The notes under the pieces: generated by a model
What the model saw: the letters and a program-made list of their open reading frames with translations, nothing else
Told to the model about the DNA's origin: nothing
Databases searched by the model: none
Part shown: positions 21,809 through 38,443 of the stretch, piece by piece
Layout of the letters: each line of letters begins with the position of its first letter
Numbering within the stretch: position 1 is the stretch's first letter
Made by a program: the position numbers and the translations under genes
NCBI GenBank assembly: GCA_036557285.1
Contig: DATBHW010000047.1
Location: 37,001-101,000, forward strand
Source of the DNA: Ktedonobacterales bacterium
Lineage (GTDB): Bacteria; Chloroflexota; Ktedonobacteria; Ktedonobacterales; DATBGS01
Direction of reading: 5' to 3'
DNA length: 64,000 nt

Positions 21809-21964
21809 TAAATCAGCCCCCCTGCTGCCTGACGCCTCGTTTGGTCTCAGTATTGCTGACGAACAAAGCTGGCAAATGAGAAGCAATTCCGGCATCCTGT
21901 CAGGTTTTTGCCTTTTTGGTGGTCATAGCTTCAGAGAAGCTTCTTAACGGAGAGTGGTGAGCCG

Positions 21965-22582
21965 ATGCCGTCTTACCGGACATGGGAGACCTCTTCATCT
22001 ACATCAGGCGTCTCATCTGAAGAGAGCCGCCTTGTGGCGCGCGCCCAGGGTGGAAATCAGGCTGCCTTTGAGGCCCTCTATGAACACTATAATAACCAGA
22101 TTTGTCGCTACTTAATCCGCATGGTCGGCAACGACGGCGTTGGCTGCGAACTGGCGCAGGAAACCTTCTTGAAGGCATGGGAAGCCCTGCCCGGCTTGCG
22201 CGAGCCAGCCCGTTTTGCAAGCTGGCTCTATCGTATCGCCACCAACTGCGCCTATACCTATCAACACCGCGCCGGGCGGCTGCACCTTGTCTCCTGGGAT
22301 GTGTACGAAAGCGGCGGCGAAGAATTGAGTGTCGCCGGGCCAGAGAAACGAGTTGAGGAAACGGAACTGCTCAAACTCGCCCTGGCGCGCGTCTCGCCAA
22401 CCTATCGCCCATGCCTCATCTTATACGTCGTCGAAGACCTGCCACAACGCAAGATCGCTGACCTGCTGAAGATAAAGGAATCATCCGTGAGCAAATATGT
22501 CAGCCGGGGAAAAGAGGAACTGCGCCAGATCTATCATCGCCTGCTGAGAGAGCAGCTTACCCCCGCGAAAGGAGGGCGGTAA
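21965..22582 (+). CDS. ECF-type RNA polymerase sigma factor
   Basis: 205 aa. Region 2 (AQETFLKAWEAL, WLYRIATNCAYTY) and region 4 (LPQRKIADLLKIKESSVSKYVSRGK). Confidence 0.9.
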   Translation: MPSYRTWETSSSTSGVSSEESRLVARAQGGNQAAFEALYEHYNNQICRYLIRMVGNDGVGCELAQETFLKAWEALPGLREPARFASWLYRIATNCAYTYQHRAGRLHLVSWDVYESGGEELSVAGPEKRVEETELLKLALARVSPTYRPCLILYVVEDLPQRKIADLLKIKESSVSKYVSRGKEELRQIYHRLLREQLTPAKGGR

Positions 22583-22587
22583 GCGCC

Positions 22588-23913
22588 ATGCTCCACCAGC
22601 CTCCCTGCATAGACTGGGCAGAAAAACTGACCCTCAGATACGAAGACCTGACGCCCGACGATCAAGTCGCCCTGGATGCCCATATCAAAAGCTGTTCCGT
22701 ATGCCAGGCAGCCCAGGCCGACTATCATTTTCTTGACGCGCGCCTGCGCGCCTTACCACCCCCTGGCATCAAGCCGTTTCCGCGCCTTTCCTTTCCCGCC
22801 TCTCTGAAACAGGAAGCGAACGAAGCGGGCAGCCGCGTATTGCCTGCGCGCCAATCTTCCAGCGCCCGACAACACGCCCTGCACACCGGCCCGTTTATCG
22901 CCTTCATCAAAAGAGCCGGAACAGGCGCTTTGATCGCCAGCCTCGTGCTGACCCTGCTGATCCTGTTCAGCGGGCGCGGCGTCTTCAACCCCGCCGACGC
23001 CTATCCGCTGGGAGCTACGCTCTTCAGCTATCAACGACATACCTTTTTTGTCACTGCCGTCGCCTGGTCGCCTGATGGCCGCTATCTCGCCTCCGGCAGT
23101 TGGGACCACAGCGTCCAGGTCTGGAACGCCCGGACCGGCGCGCTCGTCTTTTCCTACCAGCAGAATGACAACGTGGATGCCCTTGCCTGGTCGCCCGATA
23201 GCCGCTATCTCGCCTCTGGCAGTTGGGATTTCAGCATCGAGGTGTGGAACATCGCAGAGCAGCGTCTCACCCAGGTGTATCAGGGGCATAACGGCATCGT
23301 CTCCGCCCTGGCCTGGTCGCCTGATGGTCGCTATCTCGCCTCTGGTAGTTGGGATGACACCATGCAGGTCTGGGATGCCAGAACGGGCGCCACCCTTTTT
23401 ACCTATCAGTATAACGAGATCGTGGATACGGTGGCCTGGTCGCCCGATGGCCGCTATCTGGCTGTCGGCGGGAGAGATGATTACGTCCATATCTTGAGCG
23501 CCCAAAGACCCTGGCCCCAACTTTACGTCTACGCAGGCTATCCCTACCAATGCGCTGAATGCGTGGTAAATGCCGTGGCCTGGTCGCCAGACAGCCGCTA
23601 TATCGCCTCTGGAGATAGGGCTGGCATCGTGCAGGTCTGGGACACGACAACCGGACGGCCTGTTATCACCTATAAAGGCCATACCGCTGACGTGTACGCG
23701 TTGGCCTGGTCGCCTGATGGCCGCTATATCGCTTCCGGCAGTGTAGACCGCACAGTCCAGGTCTGGCAGGCCATGACGGGCCTCTTGCTCGTCACCCACA
23801 CCGGCCACAGCCAGACTGTCGCTGCCGTCGCCTGGTCGCCTGATGGCCGCTATATCGCTTCTGGCAGTTGGGACAACACCGTACAGGTATGGCAGGCAAC
23901 CTACGATGGGTGA
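22588..23913 (+). CDS. Anti-sigma factor (zf-HC2) fused to an extracytoplasmic WD40 beta-propeller
   Basis: 441 aa. HIKSCSVCQAAQADYHFL zinc-finger motif, TM ALIASLVLTLLILFSG, then about 7 repeats of AWSPDGRY(L/I)ASGSWD...VQVW. Starts 6 nt after the sigma gene stop. Confidence 0.85.
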   Translation: MLHQPPCIDWAEKLTLRYEDLTPDDQVALDAHIKSCSVCQAAQADYHFLDARLRALPPPGIKPFPRLSFPASLKQEANEAGSRVLPARQSSSARQHALHTGPFIAFIKRAGTGALIASLVLTLLILFSGRGVFNPADAYPLGATLFSYQRHTFFVTAVAWSPDGRYLASGSWDHSVQVWNARTGALVFSYQQNDNVDALAWSPDSRYLASGSWDFSIEVWNIAEQRLTQVYQGHNGIVSALAWSPDGRYLASGSWDDTMQVWDARTGATLFTYQYNEIVDTVAWSPDGRYLAVGGRDDYVHILSAQRPWPQLYVYAGYPYQCAECVVNAVAWSPDSRYIASGDRAGIVQVWDTTTGRPVITYKGHTADVYALAWSPDGRYIASGSVDRTVQVWQAMTGLLLVTHTGHSQTVAAVAWSPDGRYIASGSWDNTVQVWQATYDG

Positions 23914-23984
23914 GCATGAAGCAAGAAAGGAGGGGTGAGATAGCTGTTATTTTTGTAGGCAAACCCCATCTTCTGTGTGTAGCG

Positions 23985-24258
23985 TGAACACATTCAGGAA
24001 GGTAGCGCACTCCTGAACGAGTCGGCTGACTGGGCAGCCGGAACCAAAGCCGCGAGACCCTTAAAACGCTGGCTGAAAGAGCCGCAACAGGGGTTCGCCC
24101 CTGCGGGTGCGTTCACACCCGATGAATCCATCTTTGGGACTCTGATTCGGAACCGTCCGGTCCCTTGCCCGGCTAGGGCCACACACTCAGGTGTGCTGAG
24201 TGCGGTGTGTTGCAGGAGGCTGTCTGGTCGTAAGACCACTGAGGTCTATCAGGCAGGC
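23985..24258 (+). ncRNA. Candidate structured RNA of unknown class (independent sRNA or 5' leader)
   Basis: Non-coding gap with at least 9 local hairpins. Examples: TTCAGGA/TCCTGAA (23993-24017), CGGCTG/CAGCCG (24023-24040), CAGGGG-UUCG-CCCCUG (24088-24103) directly stacked on CGGGTG/CACCCG (24104-24121), and TGGTC-GUAA-GACCA (24225-24238). The tetraloop identities fit the + strand. Confidence 0.45.
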
Positions 24259-24305
24259 AAGTGCAAGAATCAACATGTATAATACATTTTGAAAGGCAGG
24301 GTATT

Positions 24306-25685
24306 ATGCCAATCTATGAGCGCCAGCAGCGCGAAGAGCTGGATCAGTTAGTGGAGGGCTACACCAACGGCAGCCTCAGCCGCCGCGCCTTCTTGCAGCG
24401 GGCTACCGCGCTGGGCCTCTCGCTGAGCTTTGCTGGCTCGATCCTGGCCGCCTGCGGCCCCAGCTCCAGTCCTTCCAATCCCACATCGGTGGATGTCCTC
24501 AACGTCTGGAGCGGCCCGGAGCAGGAGTCATTCAAGGCGGTGGTCAAGCCCTTTACCGATCAATCTGGCATTACCGTCAAACTTGAGTCCACGCGCGACC
24601 TGAACGCCACGCTGACTACCCGCATTCAGGGCCGCAACCCGCCCGACATTGCCATCCTGCCCAACCCCGGCAAGATGCAGCAGTTAGCGGCTCAGGGCCA
24701 TCTCATCTCCCTGGACAACTTCCTGGACATGGGCCAGATTCAGAGCCAGTATTCCCAAGGCTGGATTGACCTGGGCAGCTACAACAACAAGCTCTACGCC
24801 CTGTTCTACAAGGCCGCGAACAAAGGCACCGTCTGGTACAGCCCCAAGCAGTTCCAGGCCAACAATTATCAGATTCCCAAGACCTGGGACGAGATGATCG
24901 CTCTCTCCGATTCGATTGCCACCAGCGGTAAGTTCCCCTGGGCAATGGGCGTCTCCAGCGGCTCGGCCAGCGGCTGGCCCGCCACCGACTGGATCGCGGA
25001 GATTTATCTGAACACCAGCGGCCCGGACCTGTACGACCAGTGGGTCGCCCACAAGATTAGCTGGACCGACGACTCCATCAAGAACGCCTGGAAGATGTTC
25101 GGGCAGATCGCCGGCGGCAAGCACTACATCAACGGCGCGCCGCAGTCCATTCTGGCGACTGGCTTCCAGGAGGCCAGCTATAAGCCGTTCGATACGCCGC
25201 CCACCGCCTACATGTATTACCTGGGCGACTTCACCGAAACCTTCATCAAAGACCAGTTCAAGGACAAGGTAGTGGCCGGAACGGATTTCGACTTCTTCCC
25301 CTTCCCCACCATCAACCAGCAGTTTGCCAACTCGCTGACCGGCGGCGCCGATGTCGTCACGGCGCTGACCAATAACAGCGCCGTCAAACAACTGGTCCAG
25401 TACATGGCAACCCCCGCCGCCCAGGCCATCTGGGTCAAGCGCGGCGGCTTCACCGCCACCAACAAATCGGTGGACGCCAGTTCCTATCCCGATCAGGTAG
25501 CCGCGAAGTCGGCAAGCTCGCTGGCCTCGGCGGCCCACTTCCGCTTTGGCGCGGGCGATCTGATGCCATCTCAGGTACAGAACGCCTTCTGGGCGGGCGT
25601 TCTCAAGTTCATCGGCGACCAGAGCCAGCTTGACAGCGTCCTGGGCGAGATTGAAGGCATTGCGCAACAGGCGTATACTGGCTAG
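24306..25685 (+). CDS. ABC transporter substrate-binding lipoprotein (sugar/family-1 type)
   Basis: Twin-arginine-like signal SRRAFLQRATALGLSL followed by lipobox LAAC. Length and composition fit family-1 sugar-binding proteins. Start at the internal ATG with a GAAAGG RBS; the track ORF starts at 24261. Confidence 0.85.
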   Translation: MPIYERQQREELDQLVEGYTNGSLSRRAFLQRATALGLSLSFAGSILAACGPSSSPSNPTSVDVLNVWSGPEQESFKAVVKPFTDQSGITVKLESTRDLNATLTTRIQGRNPPDIAILPNPGKMQQLAAQGHLISLDNFLDMGQIQSQYSQGWIDLGSYNNKLYALFYKAANKGTVWYSPKQFQANNYQIPKTWDEMIALSDSIATSGKFPWAMGVSSGSASGWPATDWIAEIYLNTSGPDLYDQWVAHKISWTDDSIKNAWKMFGQIAGGKHYINGAPQSILATGFQEASYKPFDTPPTAYMYYLGDFTETFIKDQFKDKVVAGTDFDFFPFPTINQQFANSLTGGADVVTALTNNSAVKQLVQYMATPAAQAIWVKRGGFTATNKSVDASSYPDQVAAKSASSLASAAHFRFGAGDLMPSQVQNAFWAGVLKFIGDQSQLDSVLGEIEGIAQQAYTG

Positions 25686-25724
25686 TAATCCATAGTTTCC
25701 CAGACAAGTGGTTTGGATGTGTCT

Positions 25725-25766
25725 CCAGGAGCCGGAGGCGTCGCGCAGACGCCCTCCGGCTCCTGG
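25725..25766 (+). promoter_or_regulatory. Long GC-rich intercistronic stem-loop between the binding-protein and permease genes
   Basis: CCAGGAGCCGGAGGCGTC-GCGCA-GACGCCCTCCGGCTCCTGG, an about 18-bp near-perfect stem with no U tract after it. Confidence 0.6.
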
Positions 25767-25789
25767 CTGGCTCACAAAAGGAGCAAGCT

Positions 25790-26728
25790 ATGGCCGTAGC
25801 AGTCCCTCAGCCCGCCGCGCCGCCTGCGCAGAAAAGCGGCAGAAAACCCATCGCCAGGCAGGATAAGTTCATCGCCTGGTTTTGGATCGCCCCGGCGGTC
25901 GTGTTTGCCGCTATCTTTCTGGTCTACCCGGTGATCAACACCATCATAACCAGCTTCCAGGACGCCAACTCTATTAATTACGTCGGCTTCCAAAACTACC
26001 AACGCATCTTCACCAATTCCGTCCTGCTGAGCGTGGTACGCAATAACCTGCTGTGGCTGGTGCTGGCGACGGCAGGCACCGTGTTCCTGGGGCTGATCAT
26101 CGCGGTGCTGGTGGATCGAGTGCGCATCGAAAGCTTTGCCAAATCCACCATCTTCATCCCTATGGCGCTCTCCATGACCGCCGCCGCTGTCATCTGGCGC
26201 TTCGTCTACGCCTATGCCGCGCCTGGGGAAAAGCAGATTGGTCTGCTCAACGCCATCTGGACCTCCTTTGGCGCGCAGCCCCAGGCATGGACAAATGACC
26301 CCAAGAACCTCTTGCTCAACAACGTCCTGCTCATCGTCGCCTACGTCTGGATGTGGACCGGCTTCTGCATGGTCATCCTCTCGGCAGCCCTCAAGGGCAT
26401 CCCCACCGAAATCTTAGAGGCTGCCCGCGTTGATGGAGCCAGCGAACTCTCCATCTTCTTTCGCATCACCATGCCAATGATCAGCCCCACCATCGCTGTC
26501 GTGGCGACCACCATGCTCATCAACGTCCTCAAAATCTTCGACATCGTATACGTCATGACAGGCGGAACCGCTGGCACCAACGTCGTTGCCGTCAGCTACT
26601 ACCAGCAGTTCTTCGACTTCAGCAACTTTGGCGTCGGCAGCGCGCTCGCCGTCGTGCTGCTCGTTGCGATCATTCCCATCATGATCTTCAACATTCGGCG
26701 CTTCCGCATTCAGGAGGCCCAGCGATGA
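25790..26728 (+). CDS. ABC sugar transporter permease (MalF/UgpA-like)
   Basis: 312 aa, 6 predicted TM helices. EAA-loop region LEAARVDGASELSIFFRITMPMISP. AAAGGAG RBS. Confidence 0.9.
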   Translation: MAVAVPQPAAPPAQKSGRKPIARQDKFIAWFWIAPAVVFAAIFLVYPVINTIITSFQDANSINYVGFQNYQRIFTNSVLLSVVRNNLLWLVLATAGTVFLGLIIAVLVDRVRIESFAKSTIFIPMALSMTAAAVIWRFVYAYAAPGEKQIGLLNAIWTSFGAQPQAWTNDPKNLLLNNVLLIVAYVWMWTGFCMVILSAALKGIPTEILEAARVDGASELSIFFRITMPMISPTIAVVATTMLINVLKIFDIVYVMTGGTAGTNVVAVSYYQQFFDFSNFGVGSALAVVLLVAIIPIMIFNIRRFRIQEAQR

Positions 26729-27693
26729 GAACAACACCACAGACATCCTCTGGCGCCGACTCCAGCGCCGAACTGGCTTTACGGCCCTCTGGCGCAGCCC
26801 TGGCCGTTGGGCAGCGCCGCTCCCTGGGCGGCCACCTGGCCCATGCCTTCAGCGGCAGCGCCCTGACCATCATCGTCGTCCTGATCGCGCTGCTCTGGTC
26901 GGTGCCGACCATCGGCCTGCTCATCAGTTCGTTCCGCCCCCCAGCAGATATTCACAGCAGCGGCTGGTGGACTGGCCTGTTCCCCCCCTGGCACTTCACC
27001 ATCGAAAACTATCAAAACGTGCTGCAATCGCAGGGCCTGGGAACCGCCTTTGTCAACAGCCTGTTTATCGCCATCCCTGGCACGATCCTGCCCGTCTTGA
27101 TCGCTGCCTTCGCGGCCTACGCCTTCGCCTGGATGAAGTTTCCGGGGCGCGATTGGATCTTTCTCATCATCGTCGCTCTGCTGATCGTACCGGCTCAGAC
27201 TATCCTGATCCCCATCCTCAATCTGCTCGCCAGCCTCACCGATTCTACGGGCGTGAAACTGACAGGCAACTATATAAGCGTCTGGCTGGTGCATACCGCG
27301 CTGGGGCTGCCGTTCGCCATCTATCTGCTGCGCAGCTTTTTCAGCGCCTTGCCCGGCGATCTGTTTGAGTCTGCCGCCATAGATGGCGCGTCACACATAC
27401 GCGTCTTCTTCTCGATTCTCATGCCACTCTCAGTCCCATCGCTGGCGTCGCTGGTCATCTTCCAGTTCATGTGGGTCTGGAACGACCTGCTCGTCGCGCA
27501 GATTTTCCTGGGCGGCAACCCGGACAGAGCGCCAATGACCGTGACTATTTCCAATCTGGTCAACAGCTTCGGCACCAACTACGAAGTGTTGACCTCCGCC
27601 GCCTTCCTCTCGATGGCCTTGCCCCTGGCGATCTTCTTTGGCTTGCAACGCTATTTCGTGCGCGGTATTCTGGCCGGTTCGGTCAAGGGATAA
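26725..27693 (+). CDS. ABC sugar transporter permease (MalG/UgpE-like)
   Basis: 322 aa. EAA-loop FESAAIDGASHIRVFFSILMPLSVP. ATGA overlap with the upstream permease. Confidence 0.9.
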   Translation: MRTTPQTSSGADSSAELALRPSGAALAVGQRRSLGGHLAHAFSGSALTIIVVLIALLWSVPTIGLLISSFRPPADIHSSGWWTGLFPPWHFTIENYQNVLQSQGLGTAFVNSLFIAIPGTILPVLIAAFAAYAFAWMKFPGRDWIFLIIVALLIVPAQTILIPILNLLASLTDSTGVKLTGNYISVWLVHTALGLPFAIYLLRSFFSALPGDLFESAAIDGASHIRVFFSILMPLSVPSLASLVIFQFMWVWNDLLVAQIFLGGNPDRAPMTVTISNLVNSFGTNYEVLTSAAFLSMALPLAIFFGLQRYFVRGILAGSVKG

Positions 27694-27734
27694 AGGTCAA
27701 GGGATCAAGTCAAGGGACTTAATAAGGAGGACTC

Positions 27735-29003
<1,269 letters not shown>

Positions 29004-29009
29004 AGCGCG

Positions 29010-29270
29010 CTGAATACCACTTGCAGCGCCGCCACTTGTAGCGCCGCCATCTTGGCGGCTCAACGCTGGCCTGCTGGTCCGTCGGCCTGGAGGGCGCACG
29101 CCACTTGTAGCGCCGCCATCTTGGCGGCTCAACGCTGGCCTGCTGGTCCGTCGGCCTGGAGGGCGAGCGTTCGCCCTGGCGAACTGCTGGCCGCCAGGGA
29201 CGGCGGCGGTACAGGCCCCGCAGCCCCCTGCCGCCAAGATGGCGGCGCTACAAGTGGTAGCCGCAACCAT
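29010..29270. repeat. Family-A repeat cluster with tandem 69-bp modules
   Basis: Module starts CCACTTGTAGCGCC at 29032 and 29101, exactly 69 bp apart. The cluster closes with GCCGCCAGGGACGGCGGCGGTACAGG and GCCGCCAAGATGGCGGCGCTACAAGTGG. Confidence 0.9.
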
Positions 29271-29330
29271 GCGAGCGGCGCAGCCCCTAGCCGCGATTGT
29301 AATCGCCAGGGCGGGGCGCGCCGCGCCGCC

Positions 29331-29681
29331 CTACTTCTTGAGCAGCGGCAGCCCGTTGCTGTCTGTGAAACTGCCGGTAATGATCGTCACCAGATCAATG
29401 ATCGTCCAGACACCGCAGCCGCCGATGGTCAGCAGCATAGCGACACCTGTGCCGGTCTTCCCCACGTAGAAACGGTGAACACCAAAAGAACCGACAAACA
29501 GGCAGAGCAGCAGGGTGGTCAACCAATCCTTCTGCATTCCCGCGTACTGCATCGGCACACCCGGCTGCTGATAGCCTGCCTGGGGCGGATAGGGCTGCTG
29601 GTAGGGTTGCGACGGCTGCTGGTAGGGCTGCGATGGCTGCTGATAAGGCCCCGACGGCTGTTGGTAGGGCGGTTGCTGCAT
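29331..29681 (-). CDS. TM2 domain-containing membrane protein with P/Q/Y-rich N-terminus
   Basis: 116 aa. [36 protein letters not shown] matches the TM2 domain pattern. AAGGAG RBS. Confidence 0.85.
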
Positions 29682-29845
29682 TGGCTCTCTCCTTTATTTT
29701 TCAGGGCTAGCTTGGTGTGTCTGGCCGGCGCGTCTCGGCGCCAAATCTCGATACCAAAACCTCAATCTCACAAACAACCCCTGAGCCGGATACATCACTC
29801 ACAAGCAGCCGGGCCTGTATGAAGATTGAGCCAGAGCTAGCTCCT

Positions 29846-29874
29846 ATACTACGGGCAAAACCTCAGCTTGTCAA
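29846..29874 (-). promoter_or_regulatory. Candidate promoter for the TM2 gene (TTGACA-17 nt-TAGTAT on the minus strand)
   Basis: Minus-strand TTGACA (plus 29869-29874) and TAGTAT (plus 29846-29851). Lies immediately beside the left flank of the MITE at 29891. Confidence 0.45.
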
Positions 29875-29890
29875 GCCCCCTACCAGCTTT

Positions 29891-30067
29891 GGTTCTAGCA
29901 AAAATGAGGTGTTGGCAAGCGAGGCATGGTACTGGTAGCGCCGCCTTCCAGGCGGCCAACGCTGCGCCAGGGCGAGCGTTCGCCCTACGGACCAGCACAC
30001 CAGCAGGCCAGCGTCCAGCCGCCAAGATGGCGGCGCTACAAGTGGCAACCCCGATAGGTGGTGGAAC
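29891..30067. mobile_element. Family-A MITE-like element with perfect 10-bp flanking direct repeat
   Basis: Termini GGTTCTAGCAAAAATGAGGTGTTGGCAAGCGAGGCATGGTAC... and ...CCCCGATAGGTGGTGGAAC. TACCAGCTTT is present at 29881-29890 and at 30068-30077. Confidence 0.85.
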
Positions 30068-30135
30068 TACCAGCTTTGACACAGACAGCAGAGCAGGCAG
30101 AAAAGCTTTTCTGCCTGCTCTGCTGTCTGTGTCCC

Positions 30136-30579
30136 TTACTTTTTGACGAGCGGGAAGCCATTGGCATCCCTATAGTTGTCGGTGACAATCATAATCAAAT
30201 CAACAATCGTCCAGATGCCACAGCCGCCAAACGTCAGTAGCTGAATTACCCCGATGAGCATATGCCCCGTATAGAAGCGGTGGATGCCAAGCACACCCAC
30301 GAACAGGCACAACAGCAGCGTCGTCAGCCAGTCTTTCCGCCCGGCCATTGGATACGCCCCCGCGTAGCCCGGAGGATACGCGGGCGCATAGGGCTGTTGA
30401 TAGCCCGGCTGCGCTGGCTGGTATGGATAGGGCTGCTGATAGCCCGGCTGCGCTTGTTGGGGTGGCTGGTACGTCCCTTCTGGTGGCTGATACCCTCTGC
30501 CAGCCTGCTCTTGTGGCGCTTGAGATGGCCCCTGCGGTTGGTCCTGTGACCGCTGCTGAGACTCTGGATAGGACTGCAT
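30136..30579 (-). CDS. TM2 domain-containing membrane protein with P/Q/Y-rich N-terminus (paralog)
   Basis: FVGVLGIHRFYTGHMLIGVIQLLTFGGCGIWTIVDL. Start set at the internal ATG (MQSYPESQQ) with an AAAGGA RBS. The upstream part of the track ORF lies in repeat DNA. Confidence 0.8.
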   Translation of the reverse strand: MQSYPESQQRSQDQPQGPSQAPQEQAGRGYQPPEGTYQPPQQAQPGYQQPYPYQPAQPGYQQPYAPAYPPGYAGAYPMAGRKDWLTTLLLCLFVGVLGIHRFYTGHMLIGVIQLLTFGGCGIWTIVDLIMIVTDNYRDANGFPLVKK

Positions 30580-30689
30580 GGCTGCTATTCCTTTCATCGC
30601 TTGCGTTTCGGTGGTGGCGTCTACCCCGCCTGTTTCTGCACAAGCAATGCCAGCGCATCCGCTGATCTCGCCTGAGCGCCCTCTAGCCA

Positions 30690-30868
30690 CGTTCCACCCA
30701 AAAAAATGAGTCTGGCAAGCGAGGCATGGTACTTGTAGCGCCGCCATCCTGGCGGCTCAACGCTGACCTGCTGGTCCGTCGGCCTGGAGGGCGCACGCTC
30801 GCCCTGGCGAAGCGTTGGCCGCCAGGATGGCGGCGCTACAAGTGACGCCCTCGATAGGTGGTGGAACC
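30690..30868. mobile_element. Family-A MITE-like element with 9-bp flanking direct repeat (8/9 identical)
   Basis: Termini (C)GTTCCACCCAAAAAAATGAG...GGCATGGTAC and ...CTCGATAGGTGGTGGAACC. Flanks CTCTAGCCA (30681-30689) and TTCTAGCCA (30869-30877). Confidence 0.8.
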
Positions 30869-30933
30869 TTCTAGCCAGCAGGCATTGCCGCTGCAAGAGC
30901 AGGTATGATATGCTTGGAAGAGGAGGTAGCATA

Positions 30934-31866
30934 ATGTCTTCAGCAGATGAACCACACACCCGCGAAGCGCCCGACACCCCTCTGGACGGGCGCTTCGCCT
31001 TTGCCGTCGGCACGATTGGCACAACCATCCTCAGCGATGGCAGCGCCCATATGGATGGCGGGGCCATCTTCGGGCGCGTCCCCCGCGTCCTCTGGGAGCG
31101 CCTGCTGCCACCCGATCACCTCAACCGCGTCCCCCTCTCGCTCAATTCCGTCCTGCTGGAGACCGAGGCCGGATTGATGCTCATCGAAACCGGCTATGGC
31201 AACAAGCTCAGCGAAAAAATGACGCGCAATGTCGCGCTGGAGCGCCCCAGCGGATCGCTGCTGGACCAACTGGCAGCACTGGGCATCGCGCCCGAAGACA
31301 TCAAGATCGTCGTCAACACCCATCTGCACGCCGACCACTGCGGCTGGAACACGCGCCGCCTGGAGGATGGCCGCCACGCGCCCACCTTCCCCAACGCGCG
31401 CTACATCCTCCAGAAAACCGAGTGGGAAGCCGCCGTTCATCCCAACGAACTGGTCGCCGCGACCTACCTGGAGGAGAATATCCAGCCGCTCAAAGACGCG
31501 GGCGTGCTTGACTTGATTGATGGCGACCTGACCATCACCCCTCACGTGCGCGTCGTGCTGACGCCAGGCCACACTGCCGCGCACCAGAGCGTCTGGATTG
31601 AGTCCGGGCCGTCGGGGCGCGAAAGCGCCGCCCTCTTCAGCGGCGACGCCATCGTACACGGCATCCATCTGGAGCGCCTGGCCTGGATACCGGCGGTAGA
31701 TGACCTGCCGCTCGTCTCGCTGCAAACCAAGAAGCAGATCATCGAAGAAAGCCTGCGCCGCCAGGCTGCCCTGATCGTCACCCATCATCCCTTCCCTGGC
31801 CTGGGCATTCTGGCCCGCGACGACCAGGGCAAGCTGCACTTTCACCCGCATCACGAGCATCAGTAA
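30934..31866 (+). CDS. MBL-fold metallo-hydrolase
   Basis: THLHADHCGW (HxHxDH) motif and a later TPGHTAAH. GGAGG RBS before the internal ATG (MSSADEPH). Confidence 0.85.
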   Translation: MSSADEPHTREAPDTPLDGRFAFAVGTIGTTILSDGSAHMDGGAIFGRVPRVLWERLLPPDHLNRVPLSLNSVLLETEAGLMLIETGYGNKLSEKMTRNVALERPSGSLLDQLAALGIAPEDIKIVVNTHLHADHCGWNTRRLEDGRHAPTFPNARYILQKTEWEAAVHPNELVAATYLEENIQPLKDAGVLDLIDGDLTITPHVRVVLTPGHTAAHQSVWIESGPSGRESAALFSGDAIVHGIHLERLAWIPAVDDLPLVSLQTKKQIIEESLRRQAALIVTHHPFPGLGILARDDQGKLHFHPHHEHQ

Positions 31867-32016
31867 GGCCGTCCACGTAGCTGCATCAGCAGGCGAGCGC
31901 GCTCAAGCGCCTGGCCCCTGGCTGGCATGGTTCCTGCATCCTCTGGAATACTAGAGCCAGGCGTGGGCGTCAAGATCGCTCGCCAGACACCGCGCCGACC
32001 CGTCATGGAGGAGCTG

Positions 32017-33198
32017 ATGTCGCTCTCACAACCGCGATCAAATCAACCTGGGCCGTCACGCTGGCAGAAGCGCCCCAGGGCCAGCCCCCAGGGCCAGAAG
32101 CCGGACCAGCAGACCAGGCCCCGCAAATGGGCGCCTGGGTTCAGGCAGGCGTTCAGAAAAATGTTCGCGGGTCTGCGCGCCTTCTGGACCAAACTCAACA
32201 ACGATTGGGTGTTTAATCTGGCGGCCATGCTCGCCTATAACCTGCTGATGTCCATTGTCCCCATTCTGGCGATGCTGCTCAGCTTCCTGGGCCTCTTCCT
32301 GAGCGGGTTGGCCCCCGGAGCGGAACAGCGTTTCATCGATCAGATCACCAGCGCGCTCCCTGGAGCCAGGGATTTCATCGATCCAGCGTTGAAACGGCTG
32401 GCAGCCAGTTCAGGCGTGTTTGTCGTCCTCACCATCCTCCTGAGTATCTGGTTTGGTTCGCGGCTCTTCGTTGCCATCGAGCAATGTTTTGGCATCATCT
32501 ACCGCCTGCCCTCGCGTGGCTTTCTGCTCCAGAACAGCATCGCCCTGCTCATGATGCTCATCTTCGCCGCCCTCATGCCTGTGCTGCTGGCCGTTTCGGC
32601 AGTGCCATCGTTTCTCACCACCACCATTGTTGATAAGTTTCTCGGCAATTCCCCAGCCACCCGTCTCTTGCTGACGATTGGAACGATCATCGCGGGCTTT
32701 CTTATCGCCACCATCCTCTTCCTGGTGATCTACATGGTCATCCCCAACCGGCCACTCCGCATAAAAGACGCGTGGAGGGGCGCGCTGATCGCCGGGGCGC
32801 TGCTGGAAGTCTACGTGATCGCCTTCCCTTTCTACGCAACGCTCCTGCTGAAACCCAGCAGCTACGGCTCAACCGCAGGCTTTGCCATACTGACGCTGGT
32901 CTTCTTCTACTACTTCGGCATCATCTTGCTCCTGGGGGCCGAATTCAACTCGTTTTGGGCAGGCCAGCGCCAGACGGCTGCCGGTCTGTCGGGCATCCTC
33001 TATCAACTTCAGGCGCGTAAAAGCGTGGAAGGCGCGGCTGGCCCCACCGCCGGGGAACGTCAGGAAGACTTGCAGGCGAATCGCGCCGGCCTGGGTATCA
33101 CCATGACCCCGGCTTCAGCCACCATCAATCCGCCCTCAAACGAAGAAGAGTCGCCGCACACCCAACAGCGCGACGAGCAGGCGCCCGATGGCTCCTGA
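32017..33198 (+). CDS. YihY/BrkB (virulence factor BrkB) family membrane protein
   Basis: Polytopic. LAAMLAYNLLMSIVPILAMLLSF and FYYFGIILLLGAEFN are typical of YihY. The start is uncertain (ATGs at 31927, 32005 and 32017); 32017 has GGAGGA 5 nt upstream. Confidence 0.8.
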   Translation: MSLSQPRSNQPGPSRWQKRPRASPQGQKPDQQTRPRKWAPGFRQAFRKMFAGLRAFWTKLNNDWVFNLAAMLAYNLLMSIVPILAMLLSFLGLFLSGLAPGAEQRFIDQITSALPGARDFIDPALKRLAASSGVFVVLTILLSIWFGSRLFVAIEQCFGIIYRLPSRGFLLQNSIALLMMLIFAALMPVLLAVSAVPSFLTTTIVDKFLGNSPATRLLLTIGTIIAGFLIATILFLVIYMVIPNRPLRIKDAWRGALIAGALLEVYVIAFPFYATLLLKPSSYGSTAGFAILTLVFFYYFGIILLLGAEFNSFWAGQRQTAAGLSGILYQLQARKSVEGAAGPTAGERQEDLQANRAGLGITMTPASATINPPSNEEESPHTQQRDEQAPDGS

Positions 33199-33245
33199 AC
33201 GCAGCAAAAGCAGAGGGCGGCAGGCTGCGCTGCCGCCCTCCGTAC

Positions 33246-34661
33246 TTACCGCTCCCTCCACCGATCTGCCGATGGCCTGTGCCGCTGTGAGCGGCGCGGC
33301 GGCATGAACGGCGTCGGAGCGCCAGGAGCCGCGCCGCTCTGTGGATACCCCGGCCCGCCCGGCCCCTGTTCTGGAGCGATCTCCTCATCCGGCTCTGGCT
33401 CCGGGGGAGCAGGCGGAACAACCCGTTCGTCCCAGGGGTAATCGTCGGCGCTGCTCAGTTTGGCCGACTGTCGCCCGCTGAGCGCAGGCAGCGGCTCCGC
33501 GCCTACTGGCCCCTCTTTGCCCTGATGGCCCTTTGGAAGCGTCAGCATCCCCTGCTGCGGGCGAGCGCCAGGGGCAGCAGCGCGCAGCGCGTACTGCCCT
33601 GCTCGCCCACTCTCTCCTGGTCGAGTGTCGGCTGGCTCGCCCTCTTTTCTCGCCCTGGCGGTGGTTGGCGCCTCCGCCCCATGTGAGCGCCCGATAAAGA
33701 ACGCCAGACCGCCAACCAGCGCGAGCAGCGCCACCACCCCCAATACCGCCGCCAGCACGGCATCTTTGAGAGTGGATTTGGTCGCACCAAGCGAGGGAGT
33801 ATTCGTCGTTGACGAATCACCCGAACCCTGCGTCGTGCGTGTGGCCGTCGTCGTCGGGCTAATGCCCGGCACAGGTGTCCCTGAAGACGCTGCCTGGGCG
33901 GTCACTGGGATCGGCCCGGCAGTGGCAGAAAGGGTGGTTGTAGAGTTCACCGCCTGGGCATAATAGTTCCCGCTTGCCGCCCCTCCTGAAATAGTCAACG
34001 TCTGGCGAAACGACCCATCCTTCTCCGTGACAACATCCGTCTGCGCTACCGGCGGCGCGTTGCAGACGGCGCTGCAAGGCACGATCACCAGATTCAGCGT
34101 CTGCGGTCCAGGCACCCAATTCGTGCCGATAATCGTCAAGGTCTCACCGGCAACGATAGTGTCCGGCGAAAAAGCCAGCGCAGCCGGTTGGCTGGTAAGC
34201 AGCGAAAAGCTGTTCGCCGAAAGAGCCGTTCCAAAGCCCGGCTGAACCACGCAGGCATAATACTTTCCAACCTTGTTCACTTCCAACGGCCACAAAAAAC
34301 CGGCGACAAAATCGCCATACTGATCTGTCTGATAGGAGCCGAGCGTCTTTGCTCCACCGCAGCTCGTACTGGAGAGGCCCAGGCTCAACGTTACAGAAGA
34401 ATAGGGCCGCCAGGAGGCGCCCTGGATACTCACCTGCGCGCCAGGCGGCCCGGCAATCACCCCCCGGTAATTCGGCGTCTTAAAACCGACAGACCCGCCG
34501 CTTGCAAACGCAGGAGCCGCTTCCCACGCCTGCGCGACACCTCCGGCCAGGCACAGCGCCAGCGCCAGCAGCAGCGCCCCAGCCGCCCGTCGCTGCCAGC
34601 CAGCCAGCCTCGCCGTCCGGCGCGGGCCGGTCCTTTTCCAGACAACCCTGAAGGTTCTCAT
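33246..34661 (-). CDS. Hypothetical secreted/membrane-anchored protein (signal peptide, beta-rich repeats, S/T linker, TM, Pro-rich tail)
   Basis: Signal-like AAGALLLALALCLAGGVAQAWEA, second TM VLAAVLGVVALLALVGGLAFFIG. Start taken as the internal ATG (MRTFRVVWK) in the ORF-track frame. My hand indexing near 34621-34680 disagreed by 1 nt, so I followed the track frame. Confidence 0.6.
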   Translation of the reverse strand: MRTFRVVWKRTGPRRTARLAGWQRRAAGALLLALALCLAGGVAQAWEAAPAFASGGSVGFKTPNYRGVIAGPPGAQVSIQGASWRPYSSVTLSLGLSSTSCGGAKTLGSYQTDQYGDFVAGFLWPLEVNKVGKYYACVVQPGFGTALSANSFSLLTSQPAALAFSPDTIVAGETLTIIGTNWVPGPQTLNLVIVPCSAVCNAPPVAQTDVVTEKDGSFRQTLTISGGAASGNYYAQAVNSTTTLSATAGPIPVTAQAASSGTPVPGISPTTTATRTTQGSGDSSTTNTPSLGATKSTLKDAVLAAVLGVVALLALVGGLAFFIGRSHGAEAPTTARARKEGEPADTRPGESGRAGQYALRAAAPGARPQQGMLTLPKGHQGKEGPVGAEPLPALSGRQSAKLSSADDYPWDERVVPPAPPEPEPDEEIAPEQGPGGPGYPQSGAAPGAPTPFMPPRRSQRHRPSADRWRER

Positions 34662-34972
34662 CAACAACGCTCCAATTCTGGCCGCCAGGCACACGCGCCC
34701 AACCAGCGCAGCCAGCGTATCCGTTGCAAGATCAGCAGGCAATCCTTCTCAAAAAGAGCAGAGACTCACTCTATAATAACGCGCCAGCTATCCCCTCTAT
34801 AACCCGAATTGCGCCGCCAGCTATTCTATCAAATCTTCTTGAATGCTTGCGGATGCTACTGGCAGTATCCCTCTTCCTTTCTGGCCCCCTTGCCAGCTTC
34901 CCCGCAAGCGGCTATAATTACGAAAAGGCGAGGAGGCAGCAAGCCCGATTCGCAAGGAGGCTTCGTCACACC

Positions 34973-36697
34973 ATGCGCGTAACACCTGCCCGGCGATCTC
35001 TGCTCTTTGCGCTTGCCAGGCGCCTGAGCCTGGCTTTTGTGTTTGGGGCACTCATCAGCCTCCTCGGCGGGCTATGGCAAAGTTCTCTCAGCTATGCCGT
35101 CCTGGCGGATGCGCTGCTGCTGCGCTTCCTGCTGGACCGCCGAGAATGGGCGACCAAATCCTTTTGGGATCAAGCGCCCTGCCTCCTGTTTCTTCCTTTG
35201 TACGCCATTGTAGCCACATATAATCTGAATTTTGGCCTGAACAAAACGCTGGGGCTGACAGCCCCCTGCTTTAGCATCGCGCTGATCGCCGCGATGATCT
35301 TCTGGGCGAAAACGCCTTTGCCGCGCGCCTTTCCACTGTCGCCAGCCTATGGGCTGGCGGCTGCATCCGGCGCGCTCGTCATGTTCCAGATCGTCTTTCA
35401 CTTTCGCGCGCTAGACAGCGGCATCGTCCTCCTCGCACTCCTTCTGGCCGTCATAGGGAGCCTGCTTGGCGGACTCTTACACGTCTTCGCCGCATTTATT
35501 CGCACACTTCCCAGGCACTACATCTGGAAATATCACTTCTGGAAATATTACTCCTGGGTGAGAAGTGTAAGAGGCGTTGCGACTCCAGCCCTGGAGAAGC
35601 CGACCCGGGAGGAGCCACCACCGCCCGCCAGAAGCACCCTATCGCGGCGCACCGTCCTGGCGGGCCTGGTCGGTGCAGGTGGATTACTCGCCACCGGAGC
35701 CGGAGTAGCCTGGCTGACGCGCTACGTTGCTCCTCATTCTCTTGCGCTCGTCACCTACAAGGGGCATGAAGATGGCGTCTTCATACTTGCCTGGTCGCCC
35801 GATGGCTCACGCATCGCCACCGCAGGCGGGGACATAGATAAAACCATCCAAATCTGGGAAGCCACCTCTGGCAAAACACTGCTGACGTATCGCGGGCATG
35901 CCGACGGCCTTCTTATATCAAGCCTCGCCTGGTCGCCGGATGGCCGTCAGATCGCCTCAGCAGATTTTAAGGAAAACCTCCATATCTGGGACACCGCTAC
36001 TGGTGGTCATATGGTCACATATACCAAGCGCGGCTTCATTGCGCAGTGGTCGCCCGATGGCAGGCGCATCGCTTCGTCGGACTTCCACAGTATTCAGATT
36101 CGGGATGCCCTCACCGATACCCTGCTGCTTACCTATCAACCACAGCAGTTTGCGCCATGCGCTCTGGCCTGGTCCCCTGGTGGCACGCGCATTGTCGCTG
36201 GAAGTTCTGCTGGTGACGAGTTCCCGCCAGGCGTGCATGTTTTCAATGCTGTCACCGGCGAAACAATTGCTCTCTATAACAGCCATATCAGCAGCGTGAG
36301 AACAGCAATCTGGTCGCCCGATGGCAAGCGTATCGCCTCAGCCAGCATCGATCTTGTCATAGACACACCCCCGAACCAGATAGTCCAAAAAGACCCAACA
36401 GTCCACATCTGGGATGCCAGCACTGGCAAGCAGTTCTTCAGATACCGGGGACATACTGATACCGTCAATGGCGCGGCCTGGTCGCCTGATGGCAGGCGCA
36501 TCGCCTCAGCCAGCGACGATGAAACTGTGCAGGTCTGGGACGCTGATACCGGCAGCCATGTCTTCACCTATCACAACAGTTTTCTGCCGGATATTCATCC
36601 GTCACAGGTCGCCTGGTCGCCCGATGGGCGATTGATCGCTTCGGCCAGCTACGACTTTGGTGGGGACGCGCAAGTCTGGGTACCAGAAAAGACATGA
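34973..36697 (+). CDS. Polytopic membrane domain plus internal Tat-like motif plus WD40 beta-propeller protein
   Basis: WD40 repeats (AWSPDGSRIAT, AWSPDGRQIAS, WSPDGKRIASAS, AWSPDGRRIASASDD). Preceded by SRRTVLAGLVGAGGLLATGAG and about 6 hydrophobic helices. The start is uncertain; the track ORF begins at 34724. Confidence 0.75.
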   Translation: MRVTPARRSLLFALARRLSLAFVFGALISLLGGLWQSSLSYAVLADALLLRFLLDRREWATKSFWDQAPCLLFLPLYAIVATYNLNFGLNKTLGLTAPCFSIALIAAMIFWAKTPLPRAFPLSPAYGLAAASGALVMFQIVFHFRALDSGIVLLALLLAVIGSLLGGLLHVFAAFIRTLPRHYIWKYHFWKYYSWVRSVRGVATPALEKPTREEPPPPARSTLSRRTVLAGLVGAGGLLATGAGVAWLTRYVAPHSLALVTYKGHEDGVFILAWSPDGSRIATAGGDIDKTIQIWEATSGKTLLTYRGHADGLLISSLAWSPDGRQIASADFKENLHIWDTATGGHMVTYTKRGFIAQWSPDGRRIASSDFHSIQIRDALTDTLLLTYQPQQFAPCALAWSPGGTRIVAGSSAGDEFPPGVHVFNAVTGETIALYNSHISSVRTAIWSPDGKRIASASIDLVIDTPPNQIVQKDPTVHIWDASTGKQFFRYRGHTDTVNGAAWSPDGRRIASASDDETVQVWDADTGSHVFTYHNSFLPDIHPSQVAWSPDGRLIASASYDFGGDAQVWVPEKT

Positions 36698-36771
36698 ACC
36701 AGGCGAACCTATTCGCCCGGCTCATATCAAACGAGATTCGCCTGGAGCGCCGCCTCCCTGGCGGCGAATCG

Positions 36772-37374
36772 TCACACCTGAAGCACGTTGAACCACAGCC
36801 CCACACCAACCAGAATCACCAGAATCCAGACCACAACCGGCTCGGCCCAGCTTCCCGCGCGGAAGCGAAGCTGACGTATCGGCGGAAAACCCAGGTGAAA
36901 ATGCAGCGGCCAGAAAATAGGAATGCCTTCTTCAGTCAGCGAATCGCCAAAGAGATGCAGGATATAGCCCAGCACGAGCGCCAGCCAGAGCGTCTCAGAG
37001 CCGTTGATAAAGTTGAGTTGCTGGCCGCCCATATGCCCCGCCAGCAAATGCACCGCCAGTTGCTGCGCCCCATAGCCCAGCGCCGCCCAGATACCAACCC
37101 CAAGCAAACTGTGCATAACCGTGCGGTGGCCGAAATGATGATTGATCTCGAAACTGAGAAAAGGAAACCACTGACCCATCGTGCTGGCCGTATTATCAAT
37201 ATCGGGGGCCAGTCCACCGATGGCAACCCCACCATAAAAGATACCTTTCACAGCCAGCATACTCAGGGTTGGCTCCTGGCTCCCCAGGATCAACGGCGGC
37301 CCGGAAAGATGCAGAAAACTATCAACAGCTACCGCGCCCGCCAGCGCAACAATAACGTGTGAATGACCTTCCAA
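36772..37374 (-). CDS. Membrane-bound metal-dependent hydrolase (YdjM/DUF457 family)
   Basis: 200 aa. N-terminal GHSH, HRTVMHSLL, and LHLFGDSLTEEGIPIFWP motifs. TTG start with GAAGGAGGG RBS. Confidence 0.8.
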   Translation of the reverse strand: MEGHSHVIVALAGAVAVDSFLHLSGPPLILGSQEPTLSMLAVKGIFYGGVAIGGLAPDIDNTASTMGQWFPFLSFEINHHFGHRTVMHSLLGVGIWAALGYGAQQLAVHLLAGHMGGQQLNFINGSETLWLALVLGYILHLFGDSLTEEGIPIFWPLHFHLGFPPIRQLRFRAGSWAEPVVVWILVILVGVGLWFNVLQV

Positions 37375-37486
37375 AAAACGAACCCTCCTTCAGCGTCGGG
37401 TAGGCGCGCTCTACACCCCCGGCATGGCGCTTCCACTGCCCATTGTAGAGGCGGATGCCCCCGTCGTCAAGTCGGATAACGCTCAG

Positions 37487-37665
37487 AGTTCCACCCCCTA
37501 TCGGGGGTTGCCACTTGTAGCGCCGCCATCTTGGCGGCTCAACGCTGGCCTGCCGGTCCGTTGGCCTGGTGGGCGAACGCTCGCCCTGGCGCAGCGTTGG
37601 CCGCCTGGAAGGCGGCGCTACAAGTACCATGCCTCGCTTGCCAACACCTCATGTTTGCTAGAACC
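37487..37665. mobile_element. Family-A MITE-like element with perfect 9-bp flanking direct repeat
   Basis: Termini AGTTCCACCCCCTATCGGGGG... and ...CCAACACCTCATGTTTGCTAGAACC. AACGCTCAG is present at 37478-37486 and at 37666-37674. Confidence 0.85.
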
Positions 37666-37670
37666 AACGC

Positions 37671-38054
37671 TCAGGTCAGGGCTTCTCCTTCTGAGCAGGG
37701 ATGCAGGCGGTCTTTCAGACGCTGACAGATACGTCGTATGAAGCGCGGCTTGATGGCTCTGCTGGACAACGGGCGGGGAGGTATGTGGCTCACCTGGGAA
37801 CCTGTAGCGGGCTGAAACAACCAGGCTTCAGGCATCAAGGTTTTCACCAGGCCATGCTTGACGAGAAAGCACAGCACGCTGCGTATCTCAGGGTGGGTAT
37901 ACAGGGTCGCATCGGCCAGGTCGGCAATCGTGACCGTCCCGTCACAGCGATACAGCACATGTTGCTGCAAGAGCGAGAGGGGGCGCACATGGTACTTCGC
38001 ACAGGGCGTGCGCTGATAGCGCAAAGTGACATCAAACGTGACAGCGGTCTGCAT
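37671..38054 (-). CDS. Small winged-helix-like protein, module copy A (partner of the XRE gene)
   Basis: The N-terminal ~75 aa are highly similar to 50812..51177 (TLRYQRTP.A.YHVRPLSLLQQ..LYRCDG.VTIADL.DAT.YTHPEIR). Start at the ATG 8 nt after the conserved AAAGGAG. Confidence 0.7.
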   Translation of the reverse strand: MQTAVTFDVTLRYQRTPCAKYHVRPLSLLQQHVLYRCDGTVTIADLADATLYTHPEIRSVLCFLVKHGLVKTLMPEAWLFQPATGSQVSHIPPRPLSSRAIKPRFIRRICQRLKDRLHPCSEGEALT

Positions 38055-38083
38055 AGACATGGCTCCTTTCATCACTTGCCATG

Positions 38084-38124: not shown

Positions 38125-38173
38125 TTCTTAATGGGGGCTTGCGAGTTGGTACTGCTGCCGTTGTAGGAATTGA

Positions 38174-38401: not shown

Positions 38402-38443
38402 GTCCAGACGACTCCTTTATAGAACCTGATACCTCCATAGTGG

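Follow-up and report, generated by a model that had tools for sequence, protein, structure and literature searches.

Small repeats with transposon-type ends and 9-bp target duplications lie at a fixed distance from predicted promoters in a Ktedonobacterales genome

We examined a family of GC-rich intergenic repeats in 64,000 nucleotides of a Ktedonobacterales metagenome-assembled genome (MAG; assembly GCA_036557285.1, contig DATBHW010000047.1, positions 37,001 to 101,000), a stretch referred to as the window. Those repeats that have GGTTCCACC-type ends are small non-coding transposons, with 9 bp of the target duplicated on insertion, and their ends lie about 16 nt upstream of the -35 hexamers of predicted promoters. 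We regard them as a new family of miniature inverted-repeat transposable elements (MITEs) and not as a new kind of system: mechanistically they belong to a known kind, their choice of target sites is unusual, and their cargo resembles repetitive extragenic palindromic (REP) sequences. The window has a G+C content of 58-68% and an ordinary housekeeping gene content, including a glycine cleavage system, ABC transporters and rnpA/yidC (proteins HEY73494xx, locus tags VH599_). It was extended by 9.8 kb on the left and 9.3 kb on the right using JGI metagenome contigs (L138 and L140) that are 99.9-100% identical and come from the same population, giving 83 kb for the searches below. One further locus, L011, comes from a different Ktedonobacterales MAG.

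A two-ended element was defined as (N)GTTCYACC...GGTRGAAC(N), and with this definition the flanking repeat measures 9 bp in each copy that has a duplication. Element E1 (29891-30068, L end left and S end right) is flanked by ACCAGCTTT at 29882-29890 and 30069-30077 (9/9), and E3 (37487-37665, S end left and L end right) is flanked on both sides by AACGCTCAG (9/9). The flanks of E2 (30690-30868, a variant L end left and an S end right) are CTCTAGCCA and TTCTAGCCA (8/9), and those of E4 (18899-19177, S..L', 279 bp with additional hairpin units) are GGCGAACCT and GGCGAAACT (8/9). Three copies outside the window also have perfect duplications: E7 (L138 13297-13546; CTTCCTCTT, 9/9), a copy at L140 18787-18948 (TTGTCTCCT, 9/9) and the copy in L011 at 906-1152 (TGCTGGCAA, 9/9). 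Duplications were absent from E5 (38488-38662, S..L'), E6 (9354-9668, L..L', 315 bp, with an approximately 75-nt I-module in place of one hairpin loop at 9409-9483) and a copy at L140 17212-17427. All four window copies for which a preliminary description of this DNA had given flanking repeats (E1 to E4) were located where it had placed them, with the flanks it had quoted. Its reading of the first as 29891-30067 with a 10/10 repeat holds as to the duplication, and the boundary is better set at 30068 with 9 bp; the flanks can also be read as TACCAGCTTT (10/10) because the last base of this element is T instead of C.

In total, seven of the ten two-ended copies in the window, its flanks and L011 had a duplication of at least 8/9 at offset 0, five of them 9/9 and two 8/9, with a different sequence at every copy. 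A flank match of at least 8/9 is expected by chance at about 1e-4 per copy. When the right flank was shifted by 1-3 nt in either direction the duplication-bearing copies reached at most 7/9, and mismatched pairs of left and right flanks gave a maximum of 7/9 (1 of 90) with a mode of 2-3. The frequency of flanking repeats, which the preliminary description had proposed to compare with control flanks, is thus far beyond chance. The possibility that the direct repeats match by chance, or through misalignment of GC-rich repetitive DNA, drew some force from two of the four original cases being just 8/9. We now give it almost no credence, with seven cases at the exact boundary, all different in sequence and one of them from a different MAG, and with both controls at or below 7/9.

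The second property of the two-ended copies, absent from the preliminary description, is their distance to predicted promoters. The L end of E1 lies 16 nt upstream of TTGACA-17-TAGTAT (29874-29846, minus strand), the S end of E2 lies 16 nt upstream of TTGCCG-18-TATGCT (30885-30914, plus strand), the predicted promoter of a metallo-beta-lactamase (MBL)-type hydrolase gene, and the S end of E3 lies 16 nt upstream of TTGACG-17-TACAAT (37470-37442, minus strand). E4 is situated between divergent promoters, TTGCCT-17-TAAAAT (18882-18854, minus strand) and TTGCCC-17-TATGAT (19194-19222, plus strand), each 16 nt from one of its ends. The same gap of 16 nt was observed for the duplication-bearing copy in L140 (TTGACA-18-TATGCT) and for the copy in L011 (TTGACA-18-TATAAT). 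E7 has TTGACG at a gap of 16 with a weak -10, and falls short of the full promoter criteria. In every copy with a duplication, exactly 16 nt separate one end from a -35 hexamer, namely the 9-nt duplication and a further 7 nt. The gap was 15-17 nt in all three copies without a duplication, such as E5, with its S end 15 nt upstream of TTGACA-17-TACAAT (38472-38444, minus strand), and E6, with its right end 17 nt upstream of TGGACA-18-TATAAT (9686-9715, plus strand), which itself lies upstream of gcvT.

Nine of the ten two-ended copies satisfied the promoter criteria at a gap of 15-17 nt, E7 being the tenth. The same criteria are satisfied by 0.43% of intergenic position and direction pairs in the window, giving a binomial P of about 2e-18 for at least nine of ten. 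An independent promoter scanner applied to 18750-38700 returned 15 sites, and five of these (38472, 37470, 29874 and 18882 on the minus strand, and 19194 on the plus strand) abut MITE ends at 15-16 nt. Seen from the side of the promoters, an intact MITE end was found 15-17 nt upstream at 7 of the 14 intergenic promoter-like sites in the window, and 2-3 more of these sites adjoin degraded elements. Orientation relative to the promoter is not fixed, with the S end proximal in about nine copies and the L end in about five. A fixed rule of L versus S orientation was considered and rejected, as either end may be proximal.

Relatives at 79-90% amino-acid identity lack the element at these promoters but retain the promoters themselves: that of E1 in L117, that of E2 in L117, L118 and L119, that of E3 in L117 and L118, and the right-hand one of E4 in L143. 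The E3 locus in L118 is an orthologous empty site: it is colinear with, and aligns without gaps to, the window minus the MITE and one copy of the duplication (19 of 26 positions identical, through the duplicated 9-mer). Empty sites in related genomes had been named in advance as a check on the transposon reading, and this one bears it out. The E4 locus of L143 was rejected as an empty site, since the gap between both conserved promoters is filled by a different repeat of the T-module type (described below). L117 and L118 (86-90% amino-acid identity) contain no MITE copy or hairpin in 34 kb, and L119, a more distant relative, contains only a few hairpins and no L or S termini; the family has therefore expanded in the source lineage.

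The two-ended copies are 162-315 bp long and non-coding, with pairwise identities of 62-93% (86% between E5 and the L011 copy), and the only open reading frames (ORFs) within them are spurious frames through the palindrome. Both ends read (N)GTTCYACC in inverted orientation. In the window the octamer GTTCYACC was counted 13 times, where 1.9 would be expected, and 11 of these occurrences lie at element ends. Long and short terminal forms were present as previously described: the L (42 nt) and S (about 27 nt) termini are homologous, with 19 of 27 aligned positions identical and L longer by 14 nt, and form an imperfect inverted repeat of about 27 nt. Both ends continue inward into the same hairpin, ...CACTTGTAGCGCCGCC-N5-GGCGGC, so the whole element is a long imperfect palindrome. 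Its core is an inverted hairpin doublet of constant length (104-106 nt in at least 12 doublets) with GTAG heads pointing outward, laid out as a hairpin, a spacer of about 60 nt that is itself palindromic, and an inverted hairpin. Each hairpin has a GTAG head, a GC stem of 6-7 bp and a loop of 5-6 nt of a few fixed types; variants with GTAC heads are also present. Minimum-free-energy folds of the single strand, whether DNA or RNA, pair the outer arms of both hairpins into one long stem, with E3 as single-stranded DNA predicted to form one long hairpin (-61.6 kcal/mol, z = -8.0) and E1 as RNA giving z = -4.1.

Variants carry extra hairpin-spacer units of 69 nt, with up to four in tandem at 43220-43491. 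The central spacer of about 60 nt is inverted relative to the L and S termini in E5 (38515-38618) and the L011 copy when compared with E3 (37517-37621), a pattern that would be expected if the spacer flips through recombination of the inverted hairpins on either side. When the central GGGCGA...TCGCCC hairpin was examined for compensatory changes, one variant predominated, alongside some mismatched forms. The I-module of about 75 nt replaces the 5-nt loop of one hairpin and is flanked by a loop-like direct repeat of 7 nt (TCCCTTC / TCCCTCC). It was observed in two MAGs, at 9409-9483, around 54709-54790 and 61528-61604, in E7 on L138, and around 1026-1100 of L011. It is either a tiny element inserted into the loop of a REP-like hairpin or a subfamily marker that was propagated afterwards.

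About 23 repeat loci were observed in the window: 6 two-ended, about 6 one-ended and about 10 without termini. Together, these related repeats cover about 4.9 kb (7.7% of the window) and make up about 38% of the intergenic DNA. Some loci are visibly eroded MITEs. In the element at 50135-50385 the L end is intact and the S' end truncated, and its right side retains ACTTA, a remnant of its left flank CTAAACTTA; this remnant plus 7 nt abuts TTGACG-17-TATAAT (from 50387, plus strand), the spacing expected after an inferred deletion of the end and part of the duplication. The element at 63420-63645 combines a truncated L end with an intact S' end, and has the extended -10 TGCTATACT at the expected distance with a poor -35. 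Promoter gaps were 16-18 nt in four one-ended copies. The one-ended element at 43198-43550 consists of an S end, four tandem 69-nt hairpin-spacer units and a closing hairpin, with no right terminus, and its S end is 17-18 nt from TTGCGC-17-TACAAT (minus strand). At 6688-7050 an S end, 16-17 nt from TTGACA-18-TAGGAT (from 6670, minus strand), is followed by three hairpin-spacer units and then a T-module repeat. Two hairpin doublets at 57537-57850 lack a left terminus and end in an L' terminus located 17-18 nt from TTGCAG-17-TAGAAT. A hairpin doublet with a degenerate, S'-like right end at 46529-46717 had no convincing promoter at the expected distance.

Loci with termini are confined to tandem or divergent intergenic regions, and all three repeat loci in convergent intergenic regions are without termini: a cluster of GTAG-headed, REP-like hairpins (29010-29260), hairpin clusters with a T-module (44357-44760) and a hairpin doublet (52163-52330). 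Other loci lacking termini are a short-spacer inverted hairpin doublet (12826-12940, with a similar locus at 41250-41345), a hairpin cluster at 14506-14700, and repeats at 1940-2010, 5497-5690 (with a degenerate S-like end), 54593-54790 and 61434-61650 (the last two with the I-module). The hairpin GTAGCGCCGCC-N5-6-GGCGGC was counted 46 times in the window, with more than half of the occurrences outside two-ended elements; exact matches to GTAGCGCCGCC-N4-7-GGCGGC numbered 46 in the window and 54 in the 83 kb, all within repeat loci. These more numerous hairpin-only repeats look like classical REP sequences. The clusters without termini are one of two things: MITE cores that have eroded or been rearranged, or a family of REP type that has spread in some other way. 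The earlier statement that the intergenic GC-rich repeats as a whole behave as a MITE family thus applies to the loci with termini and does not extend to the roughly 10 of 23 without them. Its opposition of a transposon to a REP sequence proved a false choice, as every element has at its core two inverted hairpins of the GTAG type, which are REP-like.

A second repeat family, the T-module, is about 70 nt long and reads GGGGAG-hairpin-TTGGTGGCGGC...GGCGCGGTTTTAACCGCC. Its 18-mer (0.12 expected) was found in the window at 7031-7048, 12813-12830 (minus strand) and 44749-44766, each together with about 50 nt upstream, and it had no match in Rfam. The T-module is also present in the MITE-free relatives, at 16795-16860 of L117 and around 500-570 and 640-680 of L143, where it sits upstream of the same promoters that are occupied in the window by E3 and E4.

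The promoter distance of 15-17 bp, the duplications of 8-9 bp and the use of either orientation point to the Mutator-like DDE transposases of TnGBS, ISLre2 and ISKra4. Elements of this kind (p-MULT) have inverted repeats of 18-39 bp that end in a conserved C, and the direct repeats that they create are 8-9 bp long (Guerillot et al. 2014, PMC3942029). TnGBS/ISLre2 (p-MULT 3) and the ISKra4 group (p-MULT 4) insert 15-17 bp upstream of sigma-A -35 boxes, a distance reported only for these transposases, and ISKra2/4/5/6, with near-symmetric repeats, have promoters on either side (PMC3942029). The ISKra4 group is named after Ktedonobacter racemifer, p-MULT 4 is known from Chloroflexi, and at least two ISKra4-group entries of Table S1 have a direct repeat of 9 bp (PMC3942029). 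Movement of the MITE by a transposase most likely of the ISKra4 group is supported by the length of its duplication, the 16-nt distance, the use of both orientations and the behaviour of related insertion sequences (ISs) in this clade.

Two such ISs were observed. L118, a relative at 89% amino-acid identity, carries a 1.67-kb IS at 607-2276 that replaces the TM2-gene neighbourhood of the window. Its transposase, split in two ORFs, matches the NCBIfam model NF033572 ('ISKra4 family transposase', E = 4e-55 and 4e-5), and its inverted repeats start GGGTGTCTCATC... and GGGTGTGACTCACC... At its right end the IS stops exactly 16 nt upstream of the -35 of TTGCTG-18-TATGCT, the ortholog of the E2 / MBL-hydrolase promoter; no clean 9-bp duplication was observed around this IS (5/9). 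A K. racemifer homologue with a 70% identical transposase (L142 1103-2742) has perfect 27-nt repeats, near-identical to those of the L118 IS, and ends 16 nt from TTGACT-17-TATACT. More than 7000 homologues of the L118 transposase were found, including proteins of K. racemifer and K. robiniae, and they are abundant in Ktedonobacteria. Both ISs were rejected as the parent of the MITE, their inverted repeats being unrelated: comparison of L and S with the repeats of the L118 IS gave shuffle P values of 0.07-0.99, and the K. racemifer repeat (GGGTGTGACTCAAG...) is unrelated to L and S by eye, these two ISs being all that were compared. In agreement with the preliminary description, which had reported no transposase gene in the window, Pfam searches detected no transposase domain in the window or its 19 kb of flanks (including precomputed Pfam assignments for the genes called by JGI).

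Translated in one open frame, the MITE served as a profile against 5.8 billion protein clusters and matched six spurious ORFs, all from this MAG. As these sit on six other contigs, the family is genome-wide in this organism. The corresponding NCBI annotations are spurious ORFs of 43-95 aa running through MITE copies (VH599_07810, _18570, _21025, _00660, _19685 and _11825). Outside this organism the family is very rare in public data. A scan of 185,579 species genomes, a collection from which the source species is absent, with the 17-mer GGTGTTGGCAAGCGAGG gave 116 matches, and the element was found only in L011; the other loci had no match to the element profile and were therefore taken as chance. 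A metagenome scan with a 19-base L-end pattern gave 6 matches, all chance, a scan of viral sequences for the hairpin gave none, and a blastn search with E3 against plasmids had no match. Rfam returned nothing at the gathering threshold and, below it, only spurious matches of the long hairpin to models resembling microRNA precursors.

Five JGI samples and four Sequence Read Archive (SRA) runs provided assemblies of this population, and all copies were present in them. The JGI assemblies differ from the window by one extra 69-nt hairpin-spacer unit at 30731-30798 (within E2; L121 and L122) and another at 63553-63621 (L140 and L141), which reflect either tandem-unit copy-number variation or a collapse of repeats in the MAG assembly. 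One JGI contig, L139, lacks about 41 bp that both the window (6396-6436) and L138 have, and its junction shows a 9-nt overlap. The difference is a small indel, polymorphic in this population, that lies upstream of the repeats starting at 6688. Logan contigs L131 to L137 end inside hairpin clusters. The repeats thus have a practical side, in that they break short-read assemblies and generate spurious ORF calls.

We consider it probable that the elements bounded by L and S termini are MITEs moved in trans by a promoter-targeting, Mutator-like DDE transposase, most likely one of the ISKra4 group. Such a transposase, supplied in trans, would make a staggered cut of 9 bp and would insert the element, in either orientation, upstream of a pre-existing sigma-70-type promoter at 15-17 bp (usually 16) from its -35. 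It would belong to the promoter-targeting lineage of Mutator-like transposases, most likely to the ISKra4 group found in Chloroflexi including Ktedonobacter, and the elements may be neutral passengers in a 'safe' site. The preliminary description had already argued for transposase-mediated insertion with a 9-bp staggered cut, a view now supported by seven duplications instead of four and by one orthologous empty site; the identity of the transposase, its mechanism and any continuing activity are what we infer from them. Several observations weigh against this explanation. Three of the ten two-ended copies have no duplication, and the outermost base varies, being G, A or C on the left and, on the right, C in 8 of 10 copies and T or A in two. 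The promoters are predictions from consensus matches in an uncultured organism. Both ISKra4-family ISs begin GGGTGT..., and their repeats have no significant similarity to the L and S termini. An autonomous element with GGTTCYACC termini, which the preliminary description had suggested as a source, was found neither in the 83 kb nor in the related loci or the genome and metagenome scans. The 17-mer scan turned up one further copy only, and the hairpin clusters without termini in convergent regions fall outside the MITE model. Presence/absence polymorphism was not observed among near-identical assemblies of the population, and current activity is therefore unproven.

One could instead derive the elements from another DDE family, since several IS families (e.g. 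IS4, IS1, the IS903 group and IS256) generate 9-bp duplications, with the link to promoters arising through survival in harmless sites. In its favor, the termini do not resemble the ISKra4-family inverted repeats examined, but selection for harmless sites would not give 16 +/- 1 nt to the -35 in essentially every copy, and we judge it improbable. A REP/REPIN system would explain other features of the window. Here GTAG palindromes and their doublets (REPINs, REP doublets forming hairpins) would be moved by a REP-associated tyrosine transposase (RAYT, of the HUH/Y1 type), with L and S as mere mosaic flanking motifs, as in bacterial interspersed mosaic elements (BIMEs). The 46 hairpins per 64 kb, the constant geometry of the 105-nt inverted doublets and 69-nt tandem arrays, the filling of convergent intergenic regions with hairpins and the presence of hairpins without L and S termini in L119 are all in its favor, and GTAG REPs are known in Chloroflexi and REP dimers within longer palindromes in Anabaena (PMC3733652). 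Against it stand seven different 9-bp duplications exactly at the L/S boundaries, the fixed promoter distance of 16 nt, and a search of the 83 kb in which no RAYT-type gene, another source considered in the preliminary description, was seen. Y1/HUH transposition (IS200/IS605, RAYTs) is not known to leave a target-site duplication, and is therefore unable to yield seven duplications at the boundaries or a fixed promoter distance. We find a REP/REPIN system alone very hard to accept as an account of the repeats, and for the two-ended elements the duplications already contradict it.

Of greater weight, if still on the unlikely side, is a combination of two layers, with a REP/REPIN family, driven by a RAYT or propagating itself in another way, that supplies the core and the clusters without termini, and a subset of its members that became a DDE-mobilised MITE by way of the L and S ends, or the reverse, with MITE cores seeding the REP-like arrays. 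Doublets with two, one or no termini all retain exact hairpin arms and the same 105-nt length, and those without termini therefore do not look older. These clusters also occupy promoter-free sites, L119 has hairpins without termini, and the central segment varies in its orientation to the termini. On the other side, no RAYT was found in the 83 kb, and the deletions of termini visible at 50135-50385 and 63420-63645 mean that erosion alone could yield many loci without termini; gene conversion between palindromes could also preserve the uniformity of the hairpins. We raise a related proposal with more doubt: that a single genome spreads the GTAG hairpin doublet by two routes, inside a Mutator-like, promoter-targeting MITE as its cargo and in REP/REPIN-like clusters without termini at promoter-free sites. 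On this doubtful proposal a DDE-mobilised MITE would have captured a REPIN, or REP-like arrays would arise from MITE cores without a RAYT.

If the preferred explanation of a MITE moved by an ISKra4-type transposase is true, the family would be a non-autonomous derivative of promoter-targeting Mutator-like transposons at very high density, with about half of the recognisable promoters in 64 kb tagged. A complete genome would then give hundreds of independent insertions with which to define what the transposase recognises upstream of sigma-A promoters, and promoter positions could be read at no extra cost from intact element ends in an uncultured Ktedonobacterales lineage without transcriptomics. 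The REP-like core poses a testable question on the origin of REP families. Were propagation in two ways true as well, two classes of bacterial repeats usually regarded as unrelated would be directly linked in evolution, and a MITE 16 bp upstream would tag most strong promoters of the organism.

Other repeats were observed close to the elements or elsewhere in the window. A near-perfect 53-nt hairpin (GACACAGACAGCAGAGCAGGCAG-AAAAGCTTTT-CTGCCTGCTCTGCTGTCTGTGTC) at 30078-30130, directly 3' of the TM2-domain gene and adjoining E1, is probably the terminator of that gene, and L117 has a different hairpin at the equivalent position. A 198-nt inverted repeat with 75% identity links 37839-38036, within a small helix-turn-helix (HTH)-like gene (37671-38054, minus strand), to 50845-51042. 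It indicates a plus-strand paralogue near 50.8 kb, and both paralogues adjoin MITE copies. Tandem coding repeats of 123-126 nt (WD40 blades) in two genes, at 23024-23907 and 35786-36655, dominate the output of the search for coding repeats and are unrelated to the MITE.

Among known systems, the BOX elements of Streptococcus pneumoniae have a modular structure, boxA-boxB(n)-boxC. The elements described here share with BOX the distinct end modules and variable internal tandem units (in this case 69 nt in 1-4 copies, the number differing between assemblies), but are unrelated in sequence and host, and BOX elements are not known to have a defined 9-bp duplication or a promoter-distance rule. The likeness to GTAG REPs, REPINs and BIMEs is one of anatomy and includes the GTAG head, the GC stem of 6-7 bp, the loop of 5-6 nt, inverted dimers that can fold as one hairpin, tandem clusters, a mosaic arrangement with other motifs, and occurrence in Chloroflexi. 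Reported cases are the GTAG-23 REP clusters of T. roseum (Chloroflexi) and the GTAG-15 dimers within long palindromes of Anabaena (Di Nocera et al. 2013, PMC3733652). Units bounded by L and S differ from REPs in their target-site duplications and promoter targeting, and in the lack of a RAYT in the 83 kb.

Bacterial MITEs, which include Correia/NEMIS, RUP, ERIC, Nezha and others (PMC3733652), resemble the elements more generally. They too are small, non-coding, multi-copy and intergenic, with terminal inverted repeats, target duplications of fixed length and strong predicted secondary structure. The elements differ from them in the REP-like cargo and the very high density (about 7.7% of the window, counting all related repeats), and no description of fixed-distance promoter targeting as a property of a MITE was found in a literature search of limited coverage. 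The differences from the ISKra4 group are the lack of a transposase gene, the length of 162-315 bp versus about 1.4-1.7 kb, and ends of (N)GTTCYACC versus GGG with no detectable similarity to the two ISKra4-family repeats compared; the REP-like hairpin doublet of the interior further separates the MITE from the ISKra4 group, TnGBS and ISLre2. Shared with these three are 9-bp duplications, ends that mostly terminate in C, and insertion 15-17 bp upstream of sigma-A -35 boxes; the inverted repeat, about 27 nt long and variable in its outermost base, falls within the p-MULT range of 18-39 bp. The use of either orientation is shared with the ISKra elements that have near-symmetric repeats, as is the host phylum Chloroflexi, and the ISKra4-family ISs of L118 and K. 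racemifer stand at the same distance from their promoters as the MITE does.

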